20,000 bases of DNA from an uncultured virus (IMG/VR IMGVR_UViG_3300009060_000024) (Duplodnaviria; Heunggongvirae; Uroviricota; Caudoviricetes), in the IMG/VR virus record IMGVR_UViG_3300009060_000024. The stretch is one strand, 5' to 3'. The position numbers and the translations under genes were made by a program. Positions 873 to 19,950 of the stretch are shown here, piece after piece. The first letter of the stretch is position 1, and each line of letters starts with the position of its first letter. The notes under the pieces were generated by a model. The model worked only from the letters and a program-made list of their open reading frames with translations, did no database searches and was not told the origin of the DNA.

Positions 873-1081
873 GTTGTATCATTTGTTGGTGATAGAGTAA
901 AAGTGGTAGCATCGCAATCTTCATTGAGGCAAGAATAATAGTAATGTCTCTCCTCTGTGTTTCTCATTCTACACTGTGGACACATTACATTACCACTGTA
1001 ACATGTTTTTGGCTTATCGAGCCAAGACGATGCATCCTCTTTTTCTGAAGATGCGTCATCTACTAAGTCTTTAACTCCCAT
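869..1081 (-). CDS. Small Zn-finger protein (start moved to MGVKDLVDD)
   Basis: CPQC...YSCLNEDC; the longer ORF start lies inside tRNA-Gln; ATGA overlap with the next gene. Confidence 0.75.
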   Translation of the reverse strand: MGVKDLVDDASSEKEDASSWLDKPKTCYSGNVMCPQCRMRNTEERHYYYSCLNEDCDATTFTLSPTNDTT

Positions 1082-1090
1082 AATTACATA

Positions 1091-1163
1091 TAGTCCCGTA
1101 GAGATTCGAACTCTAGTCCTCGGCTCCAAAGGCCGATGTGATTGGCCGCTACACCACGGGACT
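1091..1163 (-). tRNA. tRNA-Gln(TTG)
   Basis: AGTCCCG/CGGGACT acceptor with archaeal-type A1-U72; anticodon arm TCGGC-CTTTGGA-GCCGA; T-loop TTCGAAT. Confidence 0.95.
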
Positions 1164-1167
1164 CAGA

Positions 1168-1256
1168 CGGCAGGACTGGGATTTGAACCCAGAGTGGAGT
1201 CATTACCTCCGGCTGGTTCTCAAGACCAGTGCATTGCCAGATTCTGCCATCCTGCC
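1168..1256 (-). tRNA. tRNA-Ser(TGA)
   Basis: GGCAGGA/TCCTGCC acceptor, G73, arm CTGGT-CTTGAGA-ACCAG, long variable arm. Confidence 0.95.
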
Positions 1257-1322
1257 ACATATTATTTTAACTCTTTGTTAGCATCTCTATATACACGACC
1301 ACACTAATAAATTTTGTGCGTG

Positions 1323-1595
1323 TTATGCGTCATTGTGTTGGTCTACCATTGGTATGCTCCTTTCTTCATCCTTTGGTATTGGGTTTCCGTCTTGGTCGAG
1401 CATTATTGTGTCATCTGGGACGTTAGTGCGTTTATACACTGTACGTCTCCCGCATTCAAAGCACTTCATGACAGGAACGTCATCGTACTTTTTGTTTATC
1501 CATATTACCCGCATACAATCATTATGCATGCAGTAGTATGGGATCTCTTCTTGTTGCGTCTTTACAGATCTGCTGTATGTATCGTTATGTCTCAT
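1323..1595 (-). CDS. Small Cys-rich putative Zn-binding protein
   Basis: CMHNDC...CFECG; likely start MRHND overlapping the upstream stop (ATGA). Confidence 0.65.
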   Translation of the reverse strand: MRHNDTYSRSVKTQQEEIPYYCMHNDCMRVIWINKKYDDVPVMKCFECGRRTVYKRTNVPDDTIMLDQDGNPIPKDEERSIPMVDQHNDA

Positions 1596-1729
1596 TCGTA
1601 CCCCCAATTATCATCTTCTGGCTCTTCCTCCGACCATCCACATTGCACACATATTTGTTTGTCCAATAATGCACTTCGGTTAAAATGGCCGCAATTAGGA
1701 CACGTCCAGCGGTTGTATGTTTCAACCAT
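1592..1729 (-). CDS. 45-aa Zn-ribbon microprotein (not in ORF track)
   Basis: MVETYNRWTCPNCGHFNRSALLDKQICVQCGWSEEEPEDDNWGYE, preceded by GGAGGTGA Shine-Dalgarno. Confidence 0.8.
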   Translation of the reverse strand: MVETYNRWTCPNCGHFNRSALLDKQICVQCGWSEEEPEDDNWGYE

Positions 1730-1743
1730 TTAATCACCTCCAA

Positions 1744-1816
1744 AGCTACCAGAGGGATTTGAACCCCCGACAACATCCTTACAAGGGACGCGCTCTACCA
1801 ACTGAGCCATGGTAGC
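1744..1816 (-). tRNA. tRNA-Thr(TGT)
   Basis: GCTACCA/TGGTAGC acceptor; loop CTTGTAA; T-loop TTCAAAT. Confidence 0.95.
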
Positions 1817-1821
1817 ACTCA

Positions 1822-1894
1822 CGGACATGACGAGACTCGAACTCGCGATCTAGAGGTTAGGAACCTCTCGCCTTGTCCACTAGGCCACATGTCC
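1822..1894 (-). tRNA. tRNA-Arg(CCT)
   Basis: GGACATG/CATGTCC acceptor; arm AGAGG-TTCCTAA-CCTCT. Confidence 0.95.
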
Positions 1895-2030
1895 AAATGG
1901 CTGCTTAGGGCAGCCAATCCGACTACGGGTGCGTATTGTGACGATCATATCTCAACCCTCACTGACCAGGCAAGGGTGCATCTGTTCCTTGCTCTCCCCT
2001 CTATTTAATATTGCGCCGAGGAGGCGCAAG
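1895..2030 (-). ncRNA. Candidate structured RNA filling the tRNA-Asn/tRNA-Arg spacer
   Basis: No ORF; several hairpins, a possible 5' pseudoknot, and a 3' CCUAA hairpin that recurs at 19953-19977. Confidence 0.45.
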
Positions 2031-2104
2031 CGCCTGCCCGAGGAATCGAACCTCGAACCTTCTGGGTAACAGCCAGATGCTCTACCAGGTTGAGCTAGGC
2101 AGGC
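2031..2104 (-). tRNA. tRNA-Asn(GTT)
   Basis: GCCTGCC/GGCAGGC acceptor, G73; arm TCTGG-CTGTTAC-CCAGA. Confidence 0.95.
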
Positions 2105-2346
2105 TTATAGGGGATTTTATGCCTCCCCCACAGAGCATCGGCACTCCAACACGCCACCATTACACAATTTGTGAATCCTGATGTTAAGTTCAGGCTTCAC
2201 CATCCCACGTGTCAATTGTCCCGACGAATCAACCTATCGAATGAGGTCTACGTTGTTGTGTACTCTATCTTCCGTGATATGATACGAGTTATGGTAGCAG
2301 GTAAGCTCTCGCTCGCGTGTCAATGTGGCATGTTTTACATGCCGAG

Positions 2347-2419
2347 TGGACCACCTCGGATTTGAACCGAGATCTGCACGTCCCAAACGTGCAATGATAC
2401 CAAGGTACACCAGTGGTCC
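2347..2419 (-). tRNA. tRNA-Pro(TGG)
   Basis: GGACCAC/GTGGTCC acceptor; arm GCACG-TTTGGGA-CGTGC. Confidence 0.95.
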
Positions 2420-2422
2420 AAA

Positions 2423-2535
2423 TGGGAGTGGGAGGGATCGAACCCCCGTCACAGATGTCATGATTGAGTTAGCGACATATGGCAATTTTGTTTGATGCTC
2501 ACCATTACTGTGACATTCCATTAAATTACACTCCC
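2423..2535 (-). ncRNA. tRNA-like RNA with the anticodon arm replaced by a branched domain
   Basis: Perfect acceptor GGGAGTG/CACTCCC+A; T-arm GGGGG-TTCGATC-CCTCC; 7-bp GTCACAG/CTGTGAC helix enclosing two hairpins. Confidence 0.7.
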
Positions 2536-2687
2536 TCGTTTATCGCTTCTATTAACGTTTTTTCAAACGACGATTTAGTTACTCCGGGGCATTGTGGACA
2601 GATGATTACATCTTGATCACGAGGATATACGACCCTGTAGAAGTCGTCGCTTATGTAACCTCCACAGTTCTCGCACTCGTGTGACAC
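2526..2687 (-). CDS. 53-aa CPxCG-related haloarchaeal-type Zn-finger protein (not in ORF track)
   Basis: GTG start; MSHECENCGGYISDDFYRVVYPRDQDVIICPQCPG...EGV; last codons overlap the tRNA-like RNA. Confidence 0.7.
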   Translation of the reverse strand: MSHECENCGGYISDDFYRVVYPRDQDVIICPQCPGVTKSSFEKTLIEAINEGV

Positions 2688-2688
2688 A

Positions 2689-3546
2689 CTATGACTTTAG
2701 GGAACGTGGTTTTATAATTCTTTCGGGTAGTGTTATACGATTCTCATCGTTCGGGAATCGTGGAGGTATCATCCAACTTTGTTTTATGCCACATTCCCAG
2801 TTAGATGTTATCTTCATTGGGTAATGGTTATCTAAATATATGTTAACAGTATCTGTGTTAACGATGGTCGAGTCTAGATAACCCATAGACATTATACAGT
2901 CTGTTATATGCTCCTCAGACTCATCATGCGGAGAGCCTTCATAATGGTCAACGTTACTCCAGTCTATATCATAGTCATCAAAATCTTCCCAATGAATACG
3001 CTCTGCCATTTCAGAGTCATCCGAGTCTGTCCACATATAGAACAACCCATCTCTTGCACTTAGATACATGTATCCATTCTTCTTATCCCCCATCCCCTTA
3101 TCATAGTCGTTAATAAAATCGCTTATGAAGGAGAAATCGTTGGTAATTTTAACAGATGTGTCTAGATCAGGAACTTGATCTGGGACACCTGATACTTGGT
3201 CAGGATCTGTCATTGGGAACTTATATTCCCTGTTGTCTGCATCAAGCTGAAGTTTATATAATTTCCCGGCAGATTGTACTATCTCGAACGTAACAGTATC
3301 ATCGTTCACACTCGAAACGTAATCTATGATTCTGCTAACGTCTATGCCAATACGTGGAAACTCTCCAACTTCCCACACCTCCATCGACTCGGATGGTATA
3401 AACGCTGCTTGAAGTGCAGTGTTTGACATTTCATTAACTCTTATAACCATCCCTTTTTCACTCATGTTTATGAGTAACTCATCTCTGTACTCATTGAGTG
3501 AATTGAATACATCATACAGCCTGTCCGCTTGTATCTCCATTTTCAT
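2689..3546 (-). CDS. pcn: DNA sliding clamp (PCNA-like)
   Basis: PCNA-type N-terminus (MEIQADRLYDVFNSLNEYRDELLINMSEKGMVIR), IGIDV, HYPMKIT, and WMIPPR matching the xxAPR C-terminal motif. Confidence 0.85.
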   Translation of the reverse strand: MKMEIQADRLYDVFNSLNEYRDELLINMSEKGMVIRVNEMSNTALQAAFIPSESMEVWEVGEFPRIGIDVSRIIDYVSSVNDDTVTFEIVQSAGKLYKLQLDADNREYKFPMTDPDQVSGVPDQVPDLDTSVKITNDFSFISDFINDYDKGMGDKKNGYMYLSARDGLFYMWTDSDDSEMAERIHWEDFDDYDIDWSNVDHYEGSPHDESEEHITDCIMSMGYLDSTIVNTDTVNIYLDNHYPMKITSNWECGIKQSWMIPPRFPNDENRITLPERIIKPRSLKS

Positions 3547-3821
3547 TTATGATCTAGCCAATTGTCTGCTGTTACGTTTGTCTTTCCGTTACTACCGTTT
3601 GAACTCTTCTCAAGGTCTATGTCAGTCTCTTCTATAACATAGTCTGCCATGAGTGTTTCCAACACCTTTATTCTCCTCTCTATATTTTCCATTCTCTTAT
3701 CATACTCTACTACAAGTTTATACATCCTCTTAAGCCTTTCGTCATCTGTCTGTGCTTCGTCAACGTCATCTGGAGTAGTTTCGTCTTTATCTCCAGTGTC
3801 AACTATATCATCTAGTCCCAT
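3543..3821 (-). CDS. Hypothetical acidic coiled-coil protein
   Basis: Heptad-like YDKRMENIERRIKVLETLM; overlaps both neighbours. Confidence 0.7.
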   Translation of the reverse strand: MGLDDIVDTGDKDETTPDDVDEAQTDDERLKRMYKLVVEYDKRMENIERRIKVLETLMADYVIEETDIDLEKSSNGSNGKTNVTADNWLDHK

Positions 3822-4249
3822 TTATTACTCGTGGGCTGTTTATTGTTGTTCCATTCTCTGCCACTGTTAACAAGCGACGAAACTGCGTCGTCAACCGATG
3901 TTGTAATGGCATCAGAATGATACTCTAAGAACACGGGTATGTCATCCTTGCTCGATTCATCTGTAAGAAGCACTGATGGTATCCCAAGGGAATAAGCTAC
4001 ATGATTCTCGTAGTACGTTCCACATGTATTGAATGGTTCTATAACCCGCATCAGTATTCCGTCACTGTCCTTAACAGCGTTTTTACATACTTCTGGGATT
4101 GATTTTCGGTCTTCGTGTTTGCACAGATTTATTGGGTTGATCCAATCAATACTTGGGTACCTGTCTATTATGTCCTCTCTCCATTCGTTAGCGTATTCTA
4201 TGCTTTCAACCGCGTCAACTGGGCCTGCAAGGTAGTACATTTTATCCAT
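3812..4249 (-). CDS. Nucleoside 2-deoxyribosyltransferase-like / nucleotide N-hydrolase family protein
   Basis: YLAGP, WR...INP, SDGIL, GTYYE, AYSLGIP motifs. Confidence 0.85.
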   Translation of the reverse strand: MDKMYYLAGPVDAVESIEYANEWREDIIDRYPSIDWINPINLCKHEDRKSIPEVCKNAVKDSDGILMRVIEPFNTCGTYYENHVAYSLGIPSVLLTDESSKDDIPVFLEYHSDAITTSVDDAVSSLVNSGREWNNNKQPTSNKWD

Positions 4250-4251
4250 TG

Positions 4252-4422
4252 TTATTTGTTGTTCAGCTTAGTGTATCTGTCGCTTGTGATGTATTGACCT
4301 GGCTCCTCATCATGCACGACATAATACAGCTCGCATTTGATGCATTTCCACCTTCGTTTGTACCTCTTTGTATTAAGCTCCTTACAGAAGGAACCACACA
4401 CATCACATCTCTTTGACGGCAT
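4252..4422 (-). CDS. 56-aa Zn-ribbon microprotein (not in ORF track)
   Basis: MPSKRCDVCGSFCKELNTKRYKRRWKCIKCELYY...; fills the gap between genes. Confidence 0.65.
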   Translation of the reverse strand: MPSKRCDVCGSFCKELNTKRYKRRWKCIKCELYYVVHDEEPGQYITSDRYTKLNNK

Positions 4423-4429
4423 TGGAGTT

Positions 4430-4624
4430 CTATTTATCCCTTATTATGTTTGCCACCAAGCCATTTGCACAATCTTTACAGAGATCATACGAAATATCTG
4501 TCTTACTGTTTGGATATGTATGCATTGTAGATGTGAATTTGGCCTTTGACCACACCGCAGGGTAGTTGACATTCTCTTGTTGTTTGCCACATTTATCGCA
4601 CCTGTGCAGTCTTGTTGTTGTCAT
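4430..4624 (-). CDS. Small Zn-finger protein
   Basis: CDKCG...DLCKDC; GAGGTGA Shine-Dalgarno. Confidence 0.75.
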   Translation of the reverse strand: MTTTRLHRCDKCGKQQENVNYPAVWSKAKFTSTMHTYPNSKTDISYDLCKDCANGLVANIIRDK

Positions 4625-4635
4625 ACTTCACCTCA

Positions 4636-4674
4636 AGCACACTGGAGGAATCGAACCTCCACAAACCATTGTGC
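4636..4674 (-). ncRNA. tRNA minihelix-like element (acceptor + T-arm only)
   Basis: GCACAAT-GGTTTGT-GGAGG-TTCGATT-CCTCC-AGTGTGC-T. Confidence 0.6.
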
Positions 4675-4693
4675 GTGGAACAGATTGGTTAAC

Positions 4694-5488
4694 TTAGTCT
4701 ATTAACGCCTTAACACCTCCAAGTTTGCCGTTCTTTACCGGACAGTAATCGGAATGCGAACAGTATTGGCACTCCTTCTCATAAGCCGGCACCTGCTTCT
4801 TATCAAAGTACTGCATCTTCTCTTTCCAGAACCTTGTGTCCATCCCATCAAGCTGCTCGTTAGTATATCTGTTGCCAGTCCTGTATCCAAAGTCCTTAAG
4901 GGCGTTATGGATACTGTGTGCCTTGCTCTTAACCACCTCCCAATTATCTTCACTCATCGTGCCAGGCATCACGGTTATATCATTAACTAAGTCTCTGGAC
5001 TTACTGTTAATCATTATAAGACCGTATGTGTCAGCATCATACATATGAGCGTATGTATTTGCCTGACTCATGTATTTGTACAACCTTCCGTGACCACTCG
5101 ATGGAGGGATGGACGAATACTTTATGTCGAATATTGTTGTCTCCCCGTCCTTTGTGCAGATTATGTCACACTTACCTGTGATCGACACTTCATCGTCTAT
5201 CTGGCACTGTGACGGCACTTCATATGAGGTGTCTACTGGGTGATAGCCAGCCCTGTTAAGGGCGTCTGTCATCAACCCAGTCTCTTGGAGGTAGTAATGG
5301 ACAGCGCTTCCCTGAAACAGCCAGCAATTAAGAACTGTCTCATCATCCGTCATCCAGTCGAGGAACACCTTTAGAGGACATCCTGTAATCTGTGACGGAT
5401 GGTATTCTCCTAGAACATGTTTGCCATACGAGACGTTGTTCTCGTATAGAACATCTCCAAGAGACTCCTCAATAAGAGTGTCGTTCAT
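4694..5488 (-). CDS. Cas4-like PD-(D/E)XK exonuclease with Fe-S cysteines
   Basis: HPSQITGC, GSAVH, GKCD...DIK, QxxxY, CQYCSHSDYC. Confidence 0.88.
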   Translation of the reverse strand: MNDTLIEESLGDVLYENNVSYGKHVLGEYHPSQITGCPLKVFLDWMTDDETVLNCWLFQGSAVHYYLQETGLMTDALNRAGYHPVDTSYEVPSQCQIDDEVSITGKCDIICTKDGETTIFDIKYSSIPPSSGHGRLYKYMSQANTYAHMYDADTYGLIMINSKSRDLVNDITVMPGTMSEDNWEVVKSKAHSIHNALKDFGYRTGNRYTNEQLDGMDTRFWKEKMQYFDKKQVPAYEKECQYCSHSDYCPVKNGKLGGVKALID

Positions 5489-15902: not shown

Positions 15903-15911
15903 TACGCTAAG

Positions 15912-15993
15912 TGGTGCTGGCCGGATTTGAACCGACGAATGACTAACAACTCGGTCTTAAGCCGAGCGCCTTTGGCCGCTTGGCTACAGCACC
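15912..15993 (-). tRNA. tRNA-Leu(TAA)
   Basis: GGTGCTG/CAGCACC acceptor, A73; arm CTCGG-CTTAAGA-CCGAG; extended variable region. Confidence 0.93.
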
Positions 15994-15997
15994 ACAA

Positions 15998-16068
15998 TGC
16001 GCCATCGAGGAATCGAACCTCGAACTCTACCTTGTAAGGGTAGCGTCATACCGTTTGACCAACGGCGC
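15998..16068 (-). tRNA. tRNA-Val(TAC)
   Basis: GCGCCGT/ATGGCGC acceptor; arm CTACC-CTTACAA-GGTAG. Confidence 0.95.
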
Positions 16069-16069
16069 T

Positions 16070-16200
16070 ATATATACTCTTTAGAGATGTATACTCTATT
16101 TACTACTATACAAACAGGCGGCGCGAAGCGCCGCCTAAGCTGTATACTCTAACAGCTTAATAGAGTAATACAGCTCATATTACTACTAGTTGGTACTAGA
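16070..16200. repeat. AT-rich non-coding region with TATACTCT x3, TACTACTA x2 and two adjacent inverted repeats (origin candidate)
   Basis: AGGCGGCGC-GAA-GCGCCGCCT at 16116-16136; TAAGCTGT-N8-ACAGCTTA at 16136-16159. Confidence 0.55.
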
Positions 16201-16204
16201 CTAC

Positions 16205-16243
16205 TATAACCTTTATGGTTCATAGTTGATAGTAAGGTTTAAG
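16205..16243. promoter_or_regulatory. Back-to-back promoter-like motifs: AAAGGTTATA (-) and AAGGTTTAAG (+)
   Basis: 16205-16214 on the minus strand and 16234-16243 on the plus strand. Confidence 0.5.
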
Positions 16244-16300
16244 TGGGGTGTGTTCTATATGGGTATAGAGAAAGAGATCTGTATGTTATTCAAAACAGTT

Positions 16301-16819
16301 TCACTCGTCGTACTTTACTGTATTATTACAGTCTGGGTAACGAGTGCATCCATAGAACTTCCCATATTCACCCTCTCTGATAACCATAACAGATCCGCAT
16401 TCATCACAAACCTTGAGGCCTCCACTACCCTTCTCCATCACGTTGTCAATCTTGTTCGAGAGATTCTTTCTCCAAGTAGCTATACGAAGAGTTTTTGTAT
16501 CTCCGATAAGCTTCTTCATGTTAGGCCTGTAGAAGGCAACGAGCCGTATCGCATCAGCCCCCTTCGATCTAGCCTTATCAGTTCGAGTGTCAATAGTAGT
16601 GAAGCAAGTGAGTGTGACATCACTGTTTCCAGGTACAAAATCTCTGGTAGAGAAAACATATTCCATGGACGGTTTGATCTCACTGTCTATATACCATTCT
16701 TCAGGTCTTTCTCTGAAGAATTTGTCGAAGTCGTCAAAAACTGGTTGGACGTAGTTGCTCGTGTTTTGTTCGATTCTTTGCTCGGCAAGGTCGTCCTCGG
16801 TGAGGTCTTTAAGTCCCAT
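16301..16819 (-). CDS. Protein with C-terminal topoisomerase-type C4 zinc ribbon
   Basis: CDECGSVMVIREGEYGKFYGCTRYPDC. Confidence 0.85.
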   Translation of the reverse strand: MGLKDLTEDDLAEQRIEQNTSNYVQPVFDDFDKFFRERPEEWYIDSEIKPSMEYVFSTRDFVPGNSDVTLTCFTTIDTRTDKARSKGADAIRLVAFYRPNMKKLIGDTKTLRIATWRKNLSNKIDNVMEKGSGGLKVCDECGSVMVIREGEYGKFYGCTRYPDCNNTVKYDE

Positions 16820-16821
16820 AT

Positions 16822-17085
16822 TTATGGGTTTAGATATTGGTCAGCCTCTTCATCTGTCATTATACTACATTCTACCATTGTATTAACTATACGCTCTTGG
16901 GCATTAAGTATTTCTTCATTCTCAGGAGGTACAGTTACCAAAGTGCCACAGTTGACACACATTGACGCCATTTGCCATGTGCCGGAATCGGTACTGTCTG
17001 TTATAACAACAGATGGAACCATTCCAACTGTAGCATGTTTGGTGTCATCCACACAGTATTGACAGTGGTGGGTTTTTGTTCTCAT
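16822..17085 (-). CDS. Small Zn-finger protein
   Basis: HCQYC...CVNCG. Confidence 0.7.
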   Translation of the reverse strand: MRTKTHHCQYCVDDTKHATVGMVPSVVITDSTDSGTWQMASMCVNCGTLVTVPPENEEILNAQERIVNTMVECSIMTDEEADQYLNP

Positions 17086-17189
17086 TAATCGTGGTGCGTC
17101 TTCATGTGCTGCTCGTACTCCTCATGTGTATCACCTGAGAAGCCGCACAGTACACATTCTGTTGGGTAAAAGTGATCTATGCTATCCAT
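17085..17189 (-). CDS. 34-aa C2H2 zinc-finger microprotein (not in ORF track)
   Basis: MDSIDHFYPTECVLCGFSGDTHEEYEQHMKTHHD; TAATG overlap with the next gene. Confidence 0.7.
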   Translation of the reverse strand: MDSIDHFYPTECVLCGFSGDTHEEYEQHMKTHHD

Positions 17190-17230
17190 TGTTGCAGAGT
17201 ATGTGTTTTATGTGGGTACTCAGCCACTAA

Positions 17231-17304
17231 CGGGCCAGGAGGGATTTGAACCCCCGATTATCTGATTAAAAGTCAGTCCCTTTGCCGGGCTAAGGTACTG
17301 GCCC
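17231..17304 (-). tRNA. tRNA-Lys(TTT)
   Basis: GGGCCAG/CTGGCCC acceptor, G73; loop CTTTTAA. Confidence 0.92.
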
Positions 17305-17310
17305 AAAAAA

Positions 17311-17742
17311 TTATGAGTCCAGCTCTTTCCTTATCTGTGCCGCCGTATGGTGGACACAGAAGTCTTCTCCTTCTATTTCTACACCAGACGAGGTGCAGTC
17401 TTTACCGCATATGTAACAAGTTGTCTTTGGTCTGAACCCATCATCTAGTGAATCTGGGTTTGTGGTAGCGGCTTGATGAACTATCTTGTACCGCTTGTGT
17501 GCAGGGAGATTACTCGTAACCTCTCCAACAGTATATCTTGTGTGATCAATGATAAACTGTTTTACCTGCTCCCACATTTCCTCATCGAAGTATTTGACCT
17601 TATCGTTTGGGCCAGTTACCTTCTTGTAGTAATCAGGTTCTGAGTTCTTGTTACTGGTGCGTTTTCTGCCAGAAGAACTTTTGGATTTTGATCTGGACTT
17701 GTCTTTATCTACTCCTTCAGGGAGTAATTCGTCAAGTCCCAT
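17311..17742 (-). CDS. Hypothetical protein with C-terminal Cys/His motif
   Basis: CYICG...FCVHH; basic Ser-rich N-terminal region. Confidence 0.75.
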   Translation of the reverse strand: MGLDELLPEGVDKDKSRSKSKSSSGRKRTSNKNSEPDYYKKVTGPNDKVKYFDEEMWEQVKQFIIDHTRYTVGEVTSNLPAHKRYKIVHQAATTNPDSLDDGFRPKTTCYICGKDCTSSGVEIEGEDFCVHHTAAQIRKELDS

Positions 17743-17778
17743 TAGCTATTCCTCCAATGAAGGAGGGCCTGAAACGTT

Positions 17779-18068
17779 TTACTCGTCGTCGGGGCCGAGG
17801 GTGTTGAAGAGATCGCGGAGCGGCTCGTAGTTGTTCCGCTTCTCTGCCTCCACAACCGCGTGGAGGAACTTACCGACCGGGACGTTGATGTTCTGACCGA
17901 GCATGTTACGAAGTTCCTGCGCCGAATCGTAGAACTCCTGCTCGTGGCGGTGTTCCGTACCATCAGGGATCTCGTCTGCCGCATTACGCGGATTCCAGAA
18001 CTTGATGTGGGTACTCTTACCGCCGCTAGACGACTCCTCGGACTCTGGGGTGAGGTCTCCAATTCCCA
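17779..18068 (-). CDS. Hypothetical acidic protein (start MGIGDLTPES), visibly more GC-rich codons
   Basis: ATG follows a structured leader; the longer ORF start lies in the structured RNA. Confidence 0.7.
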
Positions 18069-18084
18069 TGGTTAATACACTCCA

Positions 18085-18242
18085 TTTGTAAGGCGATGAG
18101 TACTCGCCCCCCGTGTTTCCCCACTGGAACATCCCTCGTACCAGTCAGGCTCGCAGCCGATCAGGGTCCGGCTGAGTTCCAACACTGGGATCGAACCAGA
18201 TTTCGTCCTATTGGAAACCGCATGTCTACGTCCCCTCACAAA
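18085..18242 (-). ncRNA. Candidate promoter-driven structured RNA or leader containing a tRNA minihelix-like module
   Basis: Terminal helix TTTGTGAGG/CCTTACAAA; internal TTCCAAT/GTTGGAA stem with a TTCGATC T-loop arm; CAGCCGG/TCGGCTG and ACTGG/CCAGT hairpins. Confidence 0.55.
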
Positions 18243-18262
18243 CGTTAGTACGCACGGGGTTA

Positions 18263-18273
18263 CTATAAACCTT
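18263..18273 (-). promoter_or_regulatory. Putative BRE/TATA promoter (AAGGTTTATAG)
   Basis: Predicted start site near 18240, coinciding with the 5' strand of the terminal helix. Confidence 0.6.
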
Positions 18274-18349
18274 CCGTTTTACGTCCGCCTTTGTGAAAAC
18301 GCACTTTTCACGTAAGCGGGAGGTGGGCCATAACGAATATACGATGTGG

Positions 18350-18580
18350 CTACCTAACCTCTACCCCTTCGAGATGCTTGATTCGGTCCTTGAACACCCT
18401 CATTGGATTGCCCTTATATTTTGCCTTGTTCTTTGTTGACTCTACATATTTACGTACTGTGCTTTCAGATACTCCTACATTAGATGCAATGCTTCTTTTA
18501 CTTAGACCAACAGCGTGGAGTGCTACTATTTCAGCTACCTTTTGATCTGATATACTCTTAAAGTTACCATTATAAGTCAT
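18350..18580 (-). CDS. Helix-turn-helix DNA-binding protein (start MTYNGN)
   Basis: LHAVGLSKRSIASNVGVSESTVRKYV. Confidence 0.8.
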   Translation of the reverse strand: MTYNGNFKSISDQKVAEIVALHAVGLSKRSIASNVGVSESTVRKYVESTKNKAKYKGNPMRVFKDRIKHLEGVEVR

Positions 18581-19064
18581 GGTTGCCCTCCAACCATGAC
18601 CAATCAATTGGCGACGGTGACTCATCCCCCTCGTCAGCATATTGGTCAACATGCCTCTCAGCACGCTCTTTGGCATTCCCAACTCTCATATCAATATCAT
18701 CAAACATGGACATGCACTCATTGTACATCTCAATATTCTTTCCATACTGCTTACCTCTGAAGAACGCATACCCTTCATCATCTGGTATTTCATCATTTCT
18801 TATTGCAGATTTGCACATGTCCTCAGCTCTGTCATCTGGAGGGTAGCACATCATTCCATGAAAAGCTGTTGAGTAGCATAGCCAATCAATAAACTCAGAT
18901 GGGGACATAGACGCATCTTTAAGAACGTTGCATCTTATACCATCTAAACTGTTCCATTGACGTGCTATGTCTAGAGATCTCTGTATCTCTTCATCCCCCT
19001 CGATTTCTTCGTTTGAATCGAGACAATCTAATTTTATTTCTATCGTGAGTATATTATGCGTCAT
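18570..19064 (-). CDS. Hypothetical acidic protein
   Basis: 164-aa ORF with an upstream GGTGA element. Confidence 0.7.
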   Translation of the reverse strand: MTHNILTIEIKLDCLDSNEEIEGDEEIQRSLDIARQWNSLDGIRCNVLKDASMSPSEFIDWLCYSTAFHGMMCYPPDDRAEDMCKSAIRNDEIPDDEGYAFFRGKQYGKNIEMYNECMSMFDDIDMRVGNAKERAERHVDQYADEGDESPSPIDWSWLEGNHDL

Positions 19065-19085
19065 ATGTTCACCATCTTTACCTAA

Positions 19086-19158
19086 CGCTCACACAGGGAC
19101 TCGAACCCTGAATCATCTGCTTAGAAGGCAGACGCCTTATCCATTTGGCCATGTGAGC
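19086..19158 (-). tRNA. tRNA-Arg(TCT)
   Basis: GCTCACA/TGTGAGC acceptor; arm TCTGC-CTTCTAA-GCAGA. Confidence 0.95.
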
Positions 19159-19178
19159 AACCATAGATCAGTTATTGT

Positions 19179-19454
19179 TTATGCGTGCCATTGGTCTATC
19201 TCATCTTCTATCCCAATTTTAAGTATCTGAGATTTTGATAAGCTCTTTAGCACGCATCTACTGCACCAATCGTAATATCCAACAGGGAATACGCTTATAT
19301 CTTTTTCTATTTGTCTCCTAGCACATGTGTCGGAACTACATTTTATATCTCCAGAATCTGATTCAATGTGCATAACACTTCGAGATGGGTTTGCTGTTAT
19401 CTTAACCTTGCTAACCCCGAGGGTGTCGCGCATTTGATTCGTGTCTTTGATCAT
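19179..19454 (-). CDS. Hypothetical protein with His/Cys motif
   Basis: H...KC...WCSRC. Confidence 0.65.
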   Translation of the reverse strand: MIKDTNQMRDTLGVSKVKITANPSRSVMHIESDSGDIKCSSDTCARRQIEKDISVFPVGYYDWCSRCVLKSLSKSQILKIGIEDEIDQWHA

Positions 19455-19455
19455 G

Positions 19456-19686
19456 TTAAAACAACTTTTGTTCTATTACAGATCCAATTATATATGCAGT
19501 TAATAAGAACGCCATTGCTATTAAAGCATAAATGAAAAATGTTAACATGTGTGTGATTGCCATATATAAAACTAGCAAAAACAAAGACGAGATGCCAATA
19601 ACAATAAAACCAGCGAGAAACCTGATTATTATTGCATCTGTTCTTAACGCCCCATGACTCCGTTTGTCAGGTATCCATTTCACCAT
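19456..19686 (-). CDS. Small two-TM membrane protein (start MVKWIP)
   Basis: Two long hydrophobic helices; the longer ORF start lies in tRNA-Ala. Confidence 0.65.
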   Translation of the reverse strand: MVKWIPDKRSHGALRTDAIIIRFLAGFIVIGISSLFLLVLYMAITHMLTFFIYALIAMAFLLTAYIIGSVIEQKLF

Positions 19687-19693
19687 TCTTAAG

Positions 19694-19765
19694 TGGACTC
19701 GGTGGGGCTTGAACCCACAGCCTCTTGCTTGCAAAGCAAGCGATCTGCCATTGATCTACGAGCCC
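19694..19765 (-). tRNA. tRNA-Ala(TGC)
   Basis: GGGCTCG/CGAGTCC acceptor with G3:U70, A73; loop TTTGCAA. Confidence 0.96.
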
Positions 19766-19879
19766 TCTGGCACACATTCAGCACGTCTATGAATAACCGT
19801 TTGCAGAGGGAGTGCCACGCCCCCTGGGCCTATTAGACCCTGATCTTGACCATTGGTTTTCCAGATGCAATGGCCCTAA
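19766..19879 (-). ncRNA. Candidate structured RNA filling the tRNA-Gly/tRNA-Ala spacer
   Basis: Four consecutive hairpins and a TGGCAC/GTGCCA pseudoknot pairing; no credible ORF. Confidence 0.45.
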
Positions 19880-19950
19880 TGCACCAGCAGAGATTCGAAC
19901 TCTGGAAGCGAGCTTGGAAGGCTCGAATGATACCACTTCATCACTGGTGC
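19880..19950 (-). tRNA. tRNA-Gly(TCC)
   Basis: GCACCAG/CTGGTGC acceptor, A73; arm CGAGC-CTTCCAA-GCTCG. Confidence 0.95.

Follow-up and report, generated by a model that had tools for sequence, protein, structure and literature searches.

At the head of a tRNA cluster in the genome of an uncultured virus lies a 113-nt gene that has the top half of a tRNA and, where the anticodon arm belongs, something else. The locus raises the question of what such a gene can be: a tRNA interrupted by an intron, a small RNA that uses the tRNA shape for another task, a signal for cutting the transcript in which it lies, or a tRNA that has lost its decoding arm. The window analyzed here is a stretch of 20,000 nt from a virus of the Caudoviricetes (IMG/VR record IMGVR_UViG_3300009060_000024). 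The gene, referred to below as the element, occupies positions 2423 to 2535 on the minus strand, and element position p corresponds to window position 2536 − p.

The Rfam tRNA model (RF00005) matches 2423 to 2535 end to end with 30.4 bits, a marginal score against the gathering score of 29 and well apart from the 50.9 to 70.8 bits of the 12 true tRNAs in the window. Its alignment covers model positions 1 to 71 and leaves out 63 nt at the anticodon arm as well as three D-loop positions. An earlier note on this DNA had listed a perfect 7-bp acceptor stem with A73, a canonical T arm, and a reduced D region containing GG, and all three can be read in the sequence. The acceptor strands, GGGAGTG (2529 to 2535, within the final codons of a Zn-finger open reading frame) and CACTCCC (with the discriminator A at 2423 to 2430, then TTT), form seven of seven Watson-Crick pairs, and the 3′ end has no encoded CCA. 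The T arm, GGGGG-TTCGATC-CCTCC (2431 to 2447), is aligned with posterior probabilities of "*" and consists of a 5-bp stem with one G.T pair and a 7-nt loop that fits UUCRAnY. U8, A9, and the shrunken D arm occupy 2515 to 2528. This D region reads TAATTTAATGGAAT; the TA that follows the acceptor strand is succeeded by a short D arm, ATTTAATGGAAT, whose 12 nt can be drawn either as an AUUU/GAAU stem with a 4-nt AAUG loop or as 3 bp with a 6-nt UAAUGG loop, with GG present; a canonical D arm has a 4-bp stem and a loop of 7 to 11 nt bearing G18 and G19.

At the place of the anticodon stem stands a helix of seven Watson-Crick pairs, formed by GTCACAG (2508 to 2514) and CTGTGAC (2448 to 2454); it had been described earlier in the same terms, and the reading of the sequence agrees. 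The 3′ strand adjoins the T stem, and if the helix forms, the variable loop is reduced to 0 to 1 nt, compared with 4 to 5 nt or a long arm in a canonical tRNA. The two strands enclose an A-rich interior of 53 nt (2455 to 2507; A20 C11 G8 T14) with a G+C content of 36% (19/53), the element as a whole having 45% and the 12 true tRNAs 52 to 60%. Inspection of the element found no 7-nt anticodon loop with U33 and R37 on a matching stem, and ARAGORN never called the element, whether in default mode, with introns allowed, with thresholds lowered to 90%, or in tmRNA mode. The absence of a 7-nt U33 anticodon loop, which the earlier note had also asserted, is borne out, and it falls where Rfam leaves out its 63 nt: the element is a tRNA-shaped gene that cannot decode. 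Nor is it a tmRNA, as had been recognized, given the negative ARAGORN -m result, a pair 3:70 that is G-C and not the G:U of the tRNA-Ala-like domain of tmRNA, a length of 113 nt against some 300 to 400 nt, and no Rfam tmRNA match. Archaea are not known to have tmRNA.

The fold of minimum free energy (−35.2 kcal/mol) equals the drawing in the earlier note. Its z score was −2.54, with 2 of 200 shuffles reaching the same energy, and −2.77 in another shuffle test; six neighboring tRNAs gave z scores of −2.1 to −3.2. The strength of the fold is unevenly distributed. Shuffling the 67-nt domain (element positions 22 to 88) 200,000 times gave a 7-bp Watson-Crick closing helix in only 215 cases, and this domain as a whole had a z score of −1.5 to −1.6. 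The interior (element positions 29 to 81) folds at −7.2 kcal/mol with a z score of −0.41, a value equaled by 30% of 1,000 shuffles. Of the two hairpins drawn within it, ATGGTGA/TTGCCAT contains two G.T pairs and ATGTCG/TGACAT one, and their separate z scores were −0.42 and −1.15. The signal above chance thus lies in the top half of the tRNA and in the 7-bp helix, and not in the two inner hairpins. The "branched two-hairpin domain" of the earlier note can be drawn and is the computed optimum, but its inner hairpins are at the level of chance; likewise, the argument that intact helices speak against decay fails for this inner pair and holds only for the 7-bp helix and the two tRNA parts, acceptor stem and T arm. 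The anatomy supported by these predictions is a tRNA top half with a 7-bp stem that is itself capped by about 53 weakly structured, A-rich nucleotides, with no defined two-hairpin fork.

One outcome that the earlier note had named in advance as fatal to its own reading was a bulge-helix-bulge (BHB) intron whose excision yields an ordinary tRNA, and the result came out against such an intron. A scan that detects the perfect BHB of a control tRNA in L002, a locus of a distantly related metagenomic virus, found no perfect motif in the element, and ARAGORN at its default threshold called none of 2,725 variants with a single segment removed. Four variants were called at -ps97. At -ps90, 415 of the 2,725 "passed," and because these passes bear many different labels the setting is uninformative. 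Removal of two segments produced 205 ARAGORN passes among 264,232 variants, and their spread over 27 anticodon labels marks them as a chance pattern. Two specific candidates were rejected. One was a canonical intron: permitted to include introns, ARAGORN returned only tRNA-Pro, both by default and when its thresholds were lowered. The other was a Met(CAU) identity through the loop AUCAUGA, which accounts for only 12 of the 205 double-removal passes and needs two excisions and a mismatched stem. The element is not an ordinary intron-bearing tRNA.

A decoding tRNA with one or more noncanonical introns is a different matter, and one that we consider quite improbable. Its best candidate is a relaxed BHB in which the bulges UGG and AUC flank a central helix, GUAA/UGAC, with one A.G mismatch, and the inner helix has 3 bp. 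Removal of element positions 34 to 81 at this motif would take an endonuclease of relaxed specificity and would leave the loop GUAAUGC with the anticodon AAU. The motif has canonical geometry and adjoins the 7-bp helix, and the virus lineage does have a tRNA intron: the tRNA-Arg(UCU) at L002:7487-7680 (Rfam, 48.6 bits) carries 121 nt at 37/38 with a perfect BHB, made of a 4-bp helix CUUC/GAAG, a 5′ bulge UAA, a 3′ bulge ACA, and a 12-bp inner helix. A relaxed BHB of equal quality, however, was reached in 407 of 5,000 shuffles of the element's interior, and in the product G32 and C38 could pair, the anticodon would start with A34, the variable loop would be 1 nt long, and the D arm would be short. 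The rejection of every single-removal product at the default threshold and the scatter of the two-intron solutions weigh in the same direction. So does enzyme specificity as described in PMC7714728: archaeal splicing endonucleases recognize a 4-bp helix between two bulges of 3 nt each, and it is for the (alpha-beta)2 enzymes of TACK archaea that relaxed motifs are typical. The window's own tRNA-Arg(UCU), at 19085 to 19159, has no intron, unlike its counterpart in L002.

The genes around the element all lie on the minus strand and form a replication module with a UvrD-like helicase, a primase-polymerase, a D12 methyltransferase, a PD-(D/E)XK nuclease, and an acidic protein of 285 amino acids (2689 to 3546, minus strand). 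The last has no Pfam or PHROG hit. By tblastn it has a weak match (E value of 2e-4, 21% identity, 92% coverage) to a gene from a Caudoviricetes virus of Methanomicrobiales that carries the annotation "pcn: DNA polymerase sliding clamp," and on this similarity it is probably the sliding clamp of the virus. The predicted proteins of the window are acidic (median pI of 4.5 over 21 open reading frames), and its G+C content is 44%. Acidic proteins and the BHB intron in L002 support a virus of a halophilic archaeon, and with the PCNA-like gene upstream of the element, the archaeal, halophilic setting assumed in the earlier note is plausible. The 12 viral tRNAs lie at 1091 to 2419 and 15911 to 19950, and 10 of them have U34 (Gln UUG, Ser UGA, Thr UGU, Pro UGG, Leu UAA, Val UAC, Lys UUU, Arg UCU, Ala UGC, and Gly UCC), a set that fits a virus of 44% G+C supplying readers of A-ending codons.

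Immediately upstream, and partly within the element, is a minus-strand open reading frame for a Zn-finger protein of 53 amino acids with the pattern CxxC...CPxC (2526 to 2687), which has weak PHROG hits and is conserved in two related loci, L001 and L002. A TATA-like box, TTATAAAA, at 2710 to 2717 on the minus strand precedes its GTG start at 2687 by 22 nt, and in L001 a TATA-like TTATTAAA also stands 22 nt before the Zn-finger start. The geometry of archaeal promoters is the basis for reading the box as a promoter. Downstream, a TTT spacer separates the element from tRNA-Pro(UGG) (2346 to 2419, minus strand; called by ARAGORN, 50.9 bits with Rfam). Both adjacencies had been given correctly in the earlier note, namely, the 3 nt to tRNA-Pro and the 10-nt overlap with the Zn-finger gene, which ends inside the element with its stop codon 7 nt past the element's 5′ end. 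In the related loci the stop codon is followed by an ordinary tRNA, after 0 nt in L001 and 2 nt in L002. A cut by RNase P would remove the stop codon only in the window. From the position of the box, we infer a single transcript that would begin at the TATA-like box and comprise the Zn-finger mRNA, without a leader, the element, and tRNA-Pro.

Relatives were sought through the 285-aa protein, which gave 10 homologs besides itself, those designated P0003 to P0011 being 35 to 45% identical to it, and three related loci (L001 to L003) were compared; the comparison of the element itself rests on these three loci and on contigs from two sequencing runs. In L001, where the 285-aa gene is 68% identical, the Zn-finger stop codon runs directly into tRNA-Pro and the element is absent. 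In L002 and L003 (29 to 32% identical), tRNA-Arg(CCU) and tRNA-Met(CAU), respectively, stand in its place. A permissive Rfam scan of the three loci returned 16 matches, comprising 14 tRNAs (one of them intron bearing) and two antisense artifacts, and none was element-like. In run X1, a contig whose 285-aa gene is about 80% identical spans the points equivalent to window positions 1897 and 2753 with 423 letters, where the window has 855 and L001 has 426. The deficit of 432 equals the sum of the element with its spacer (116), tRNA-Asn (75), and the spacer between tRNA-Pro and tRNA-Asn (241). By this count the contig appears to represent a closer relative that has no room for the element, in what is probably the very run that yielded the window. 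From a second public run, X2, a contig of 151 letters at depth 2 covers 2377 to 2540, that is, the element and the start of tRNA-Pro, with one different letter and 13 gaps, and its neighbors on either side (151 and 181 letters) match the window without a difference. This gap of 13 letters, which falls in or beside the element, points to possible variability at the strain level.

Wider searches gave no second example. Neither the element nor its interior had a match in the viral_contigs collection (three exact-word scans) or in phage records (blastn), window positions 1000 to 5000 had none in phage records by megablast, and no relative of the 285-aa protein turned up in the viral_contigs or genome_contigs searches. 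A lack of conserved homologs, which the earlier note had named as another outcome that would refute its reading, is thus what the three related loci, viral_contigs, and phage records show. A pattern built from the acceptor strands and the T loop did find at least 120 loci in genome_contigs, and the loci labeled from such pattern searches were of mixed tRNA identity, including Tyr, Lys, Met, Phe, Ile, Val, and Leu; because none of the matches listed came from a genome with a haloarchaeon in its title, no ancestor can be named. Among IMG/VR contigs, a group of loci share the acceptor strands and the T loop by design of the search pattern, namely, 13 within L126 to L155 (116 nt each), L131 (119 nt), and L133 (110 nt). 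These 110- to 119-nt loci have no ARAGORN tRNA calls, their interiors are unrelated to that of the element, and 13 large contigs share a nearly identical 116-nt form.

Several smaller features of the region were noted in the same comparison. The order of tRNAs is Pro-Asn-Arg-Thr-Ser-Gln in the window and Pro-Arg-Thr-Ser-Asn-Gln in L001. The Zn-finger open reading frame ends in ...NEGV* in the window (2526 to 2535) and in ...NNME* in L001 (7004 to 7015), with the same aligned length. The L001 end, TGGAATG, could pair with five of the seven bases of the element's 3′ acceptor strand, a match with a chance probability of about 7%, and the D arm of the element repeats the word ATGGAATG; the pairing and the recurrence may bear on the origin of the element or may be due to chance. 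A 16-nt motif, GGAGGCRTAAAATCCC, is identical at window positions 2111 to 2126 (minus strand) and at L002:7385-7400, two loci whose PCNA-like proteins are only 32% identical. It closes a long spacer, stopping about 7 nt short of a tRNA gene (tRNA-Asn in the window and tRNA-Pro in L002), and forms a small hairpin; 0.01 matches would be expected by chance in the window, and the apparent conservation extends to about 35 nt around it. The motif may act in processing or, on one strand or the other, as a promoter.

The suggestion that the loops of the element act as guides was examined through exact complements in the 20-kb window. The longest runs complementary to the interior were 10 and 12 nt, lengths that 239 and 30 of 500 shuffles, respectively, also reached, and the guide idea thus finds no complementarity above chance there. 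No second copy of the 67-nt insert is present in the window or in 157 loci, and the interior shows no repeat above chance. On inspection, the two drawn loops are nearly free of G and have no mutual complementarity, and a kissing-loop interaction was set aside on the latter ground. In a box C/D guide, as found in haloarchaeal tRNA introns, a C box (RUGAUGA) and a D box (CUGA) are combined with a 12-nt guide spacing. The element offers only the C-like words AUGGUGA and AUCAUGA, each with one mismatch, and inspection found neither a D nor a D′ box spaced as required; this class was rejected, and no snoRNA model reached its Rfam threshold on the element.

The reading that we favor, with moderate confidence, is that the element is a lineage-specific gene derived from a tRNA, the decoding arm of which has been lost. 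It follows from a top half that is real and a decoding arm that is absent, as expressed in a score of 30.4 bits obtained by skipping 63 nt and in the silence of ARAGORN; from an interior that is not selected for structure (z score of −0.41, 36% G+C); and from the lack of an intron, of conservation, and of a sequence-specific target in the window. The possible strain variability seen in the X2 gap and the cotranscription setting are in keeping with it, and because the nearest relatives are without the element, a disabled tRNA copy is likelier than a new working RNA. The transcript would start at the TATA-like box, run through the leaderless Zn-finger open reading frame, enter the element about 150 nt in, and continue into tRNA-Pro. 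The minihelix of acceptor stem and T arm, with the elbow, would present the features recognized by RNase P, tRNase Z, and the CCA-adding enzyme. Because this minihelix is intact, the element RNA is probably excised as its neighbors are, by RNase P and tRNase Z, from the common transcript of the Zn-finger mRNA and the tRNA; the maturation by RNase P, RNase Z, and CCA enzyme that the earlier note had envisaged is a reasonable inference. The excised RNA would be some 113 nt long before the addition of CCA. The 5′ cut would take the stop codon off the Zn-finger mRNA, and the product would be unable to read codons, its interior presumably having no sequence-specific role. The gene would persist as a disabled tRNA and at most as a passive processing unit resembling a t-element; according to PMC4326828, RNase P and tRNase Z cut the tRNA-like t-elements of Haloferax, which lends the scheme support.

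One observation weighs against the loss of a decoding arm as the whole story, namely, that no mismatch occurs in the acceptor stem, T arm, or 7-bp helix, all of which a long neutral decay should have struck as well. This leaves very recent damage or selection on these parts as explanations. Positions 26:44 and 32:38, moreover, do not form Watson-Crick pairs in normal tRNAs; both are G-C in the element, and the 7-bp helix is therefore not simply the old anticodon stem. The absence of the element from relatives is equally compatible with junk and with a useful RNA that was gained recently.

The flawless helices keep three other readings in play, namely, the noncanonically spliced tRNA considered above, a selected processing signal, and a working small RNA of tRNA shape; the last we entertain tentatively, as an unlikely reading. 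In such an RNA the top half would be a handle for maturation, stability, and CCA addition, and the 7-bp stem would present a 53-nt loop, mostly unpaired and rich in A and C, that binds a host or viral factor, as a decoy, a sponge, or a guide. Besides the intact acceptor stem, T arm, and 7-bp helix, it can draw on the 3-nt spacing to tRNA-Pro, which resembles that of the window's true tandem tRNA pairs, and on loop sequences that are poor in G and predicted to be unpaired. It would sit better with homologs in the three related loci, viral_contigs, or phage records, none of which was found; the nearest relatives are without the element, the structure of the interior and its complementarity in the 20-kb window do not rise above chance, and a nearly identical strain has a 13-letter gap. 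A broader version of the same thought, which we judge rather unlikely, is that the element functions as part of a wider, uncatalogued viral habit of keeping anticodon-less, tRNA-shaped RNAs in tRNA clusters. The top half would then recruit the host's machinery for maturation, CCA addition, and elbow binding, and the 7-bp rod with its approximately 53 unpaired, A/C-rich nucleotides would serve as a decoy, a sponge, or a scaffold during infection of a haloarchaeon.

The position of the stop codon, 7 nt inside the element, suggests another selected role, that of a processing signal amounting to a viral t-element. A 5′ cut by RNase P would detach the Zn-finger mRNA, remove its stop codon, and so limit expression of the Zn-finger protein, with translation and processing mutually exclusive on any one transcript. 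The layout of an open reading frame beside a tRNA is kept in L001 and L002 and speaks for such a coupling, but there an ordinary tRNA already supplies the cut and leaves the stop codon intact, so that an extra element is not needed; the 7-bp helix and the 53-nt interior would also go unexplained. We regard this role as decidedly unlikely. Very improbable, in our estimate, is a one-step replacement of the anticodon arm by a small foreign insert, with GTCACAG...CTGTGAC as the termini of a miniature mobile element or as a recombination scar. A perfect 7-bp inverted repeat does surround AT-rich sequence of a composition foreign to tRNAs, and the difference in tRNA order between the window and L001 indicates that the region rearranges. 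No second copy of the insert is present in the window or the 157 loci, however, no target-site duplication is visible, and viral_contigs and phage records gave no match.

What the element means depends on which of these readings applies. If it is only a disabled tRNA, the consequence is a small point of annotation: Rfam calls a tRNA where ARAGORN does not, and the gene should be excluded from the decoding set of the virus. Its case also documents the speed at which tRNA clusters are reshuffled in archaeal viruses, given that the order differs from that of a relative at 68% identity. If the element is processed, it would be a natural viral counterpart of the t-elements of Haloferax and an odd case in which the maturation of one RNA strips the stop codon from the gene upstream. 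If its interior is functional, it would add an example from an archaeal virus to the scattered viral RNAs that have a tRNA shape and do not decode.

Set beside a canonical tRNA (RF00005), the element shares the acceptor stem, the T arm, the GG of the D loop, a position in the cluster, and a spacing like that of its neighbors; it departs in having no anticodon loop, a variable loop of 0 to 1 nt, a short D arm, and a score of 30.4 bits. Degenerate or pseudo-tRNA genes have been reported in viral tRNA clusters. With archaeal tRNAs that carry BHB introns, and with the tRNA-Arg(UCU) of L002 from the same virus lineage in particular, it has in common a long, helix-closed insert at the anticodon arm. 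The L002 gene splices to a normal loop, whereas the element has no perfect BHB and yields no single-removal product that passes as a tRNA. The tRNA-like domain of tmRNA, YrlA (RF02553), and mascRNA (RF01684) are tRNA-like RNAs that use factors for tRNA processing or binding and do not decode, and the element resembles them in this respect; the corresponding models did not match it at E values up to 10. A further comparison is with the t-elements of Haloferax volcanii, which are described in PMC4326828, citing Holzle et al. 2008 and 2012, as tRNA-like structures first seen upstream of 5S rRNA and cut by tRNase Z and RNase P. Set against that description, the element differs in being viral, in keeping a full 7-bp acceptor stem and a T arm, and in adding a 67-nt domain. 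Like the t-elements as described there, it is a nondecoding, tRNA-like fold inside what would be a longer transcript of a halophilic archaeal system. By this analogy it would be a substrate for the same enzymes, and their cuts would define the ends of the neighboring RNAs.
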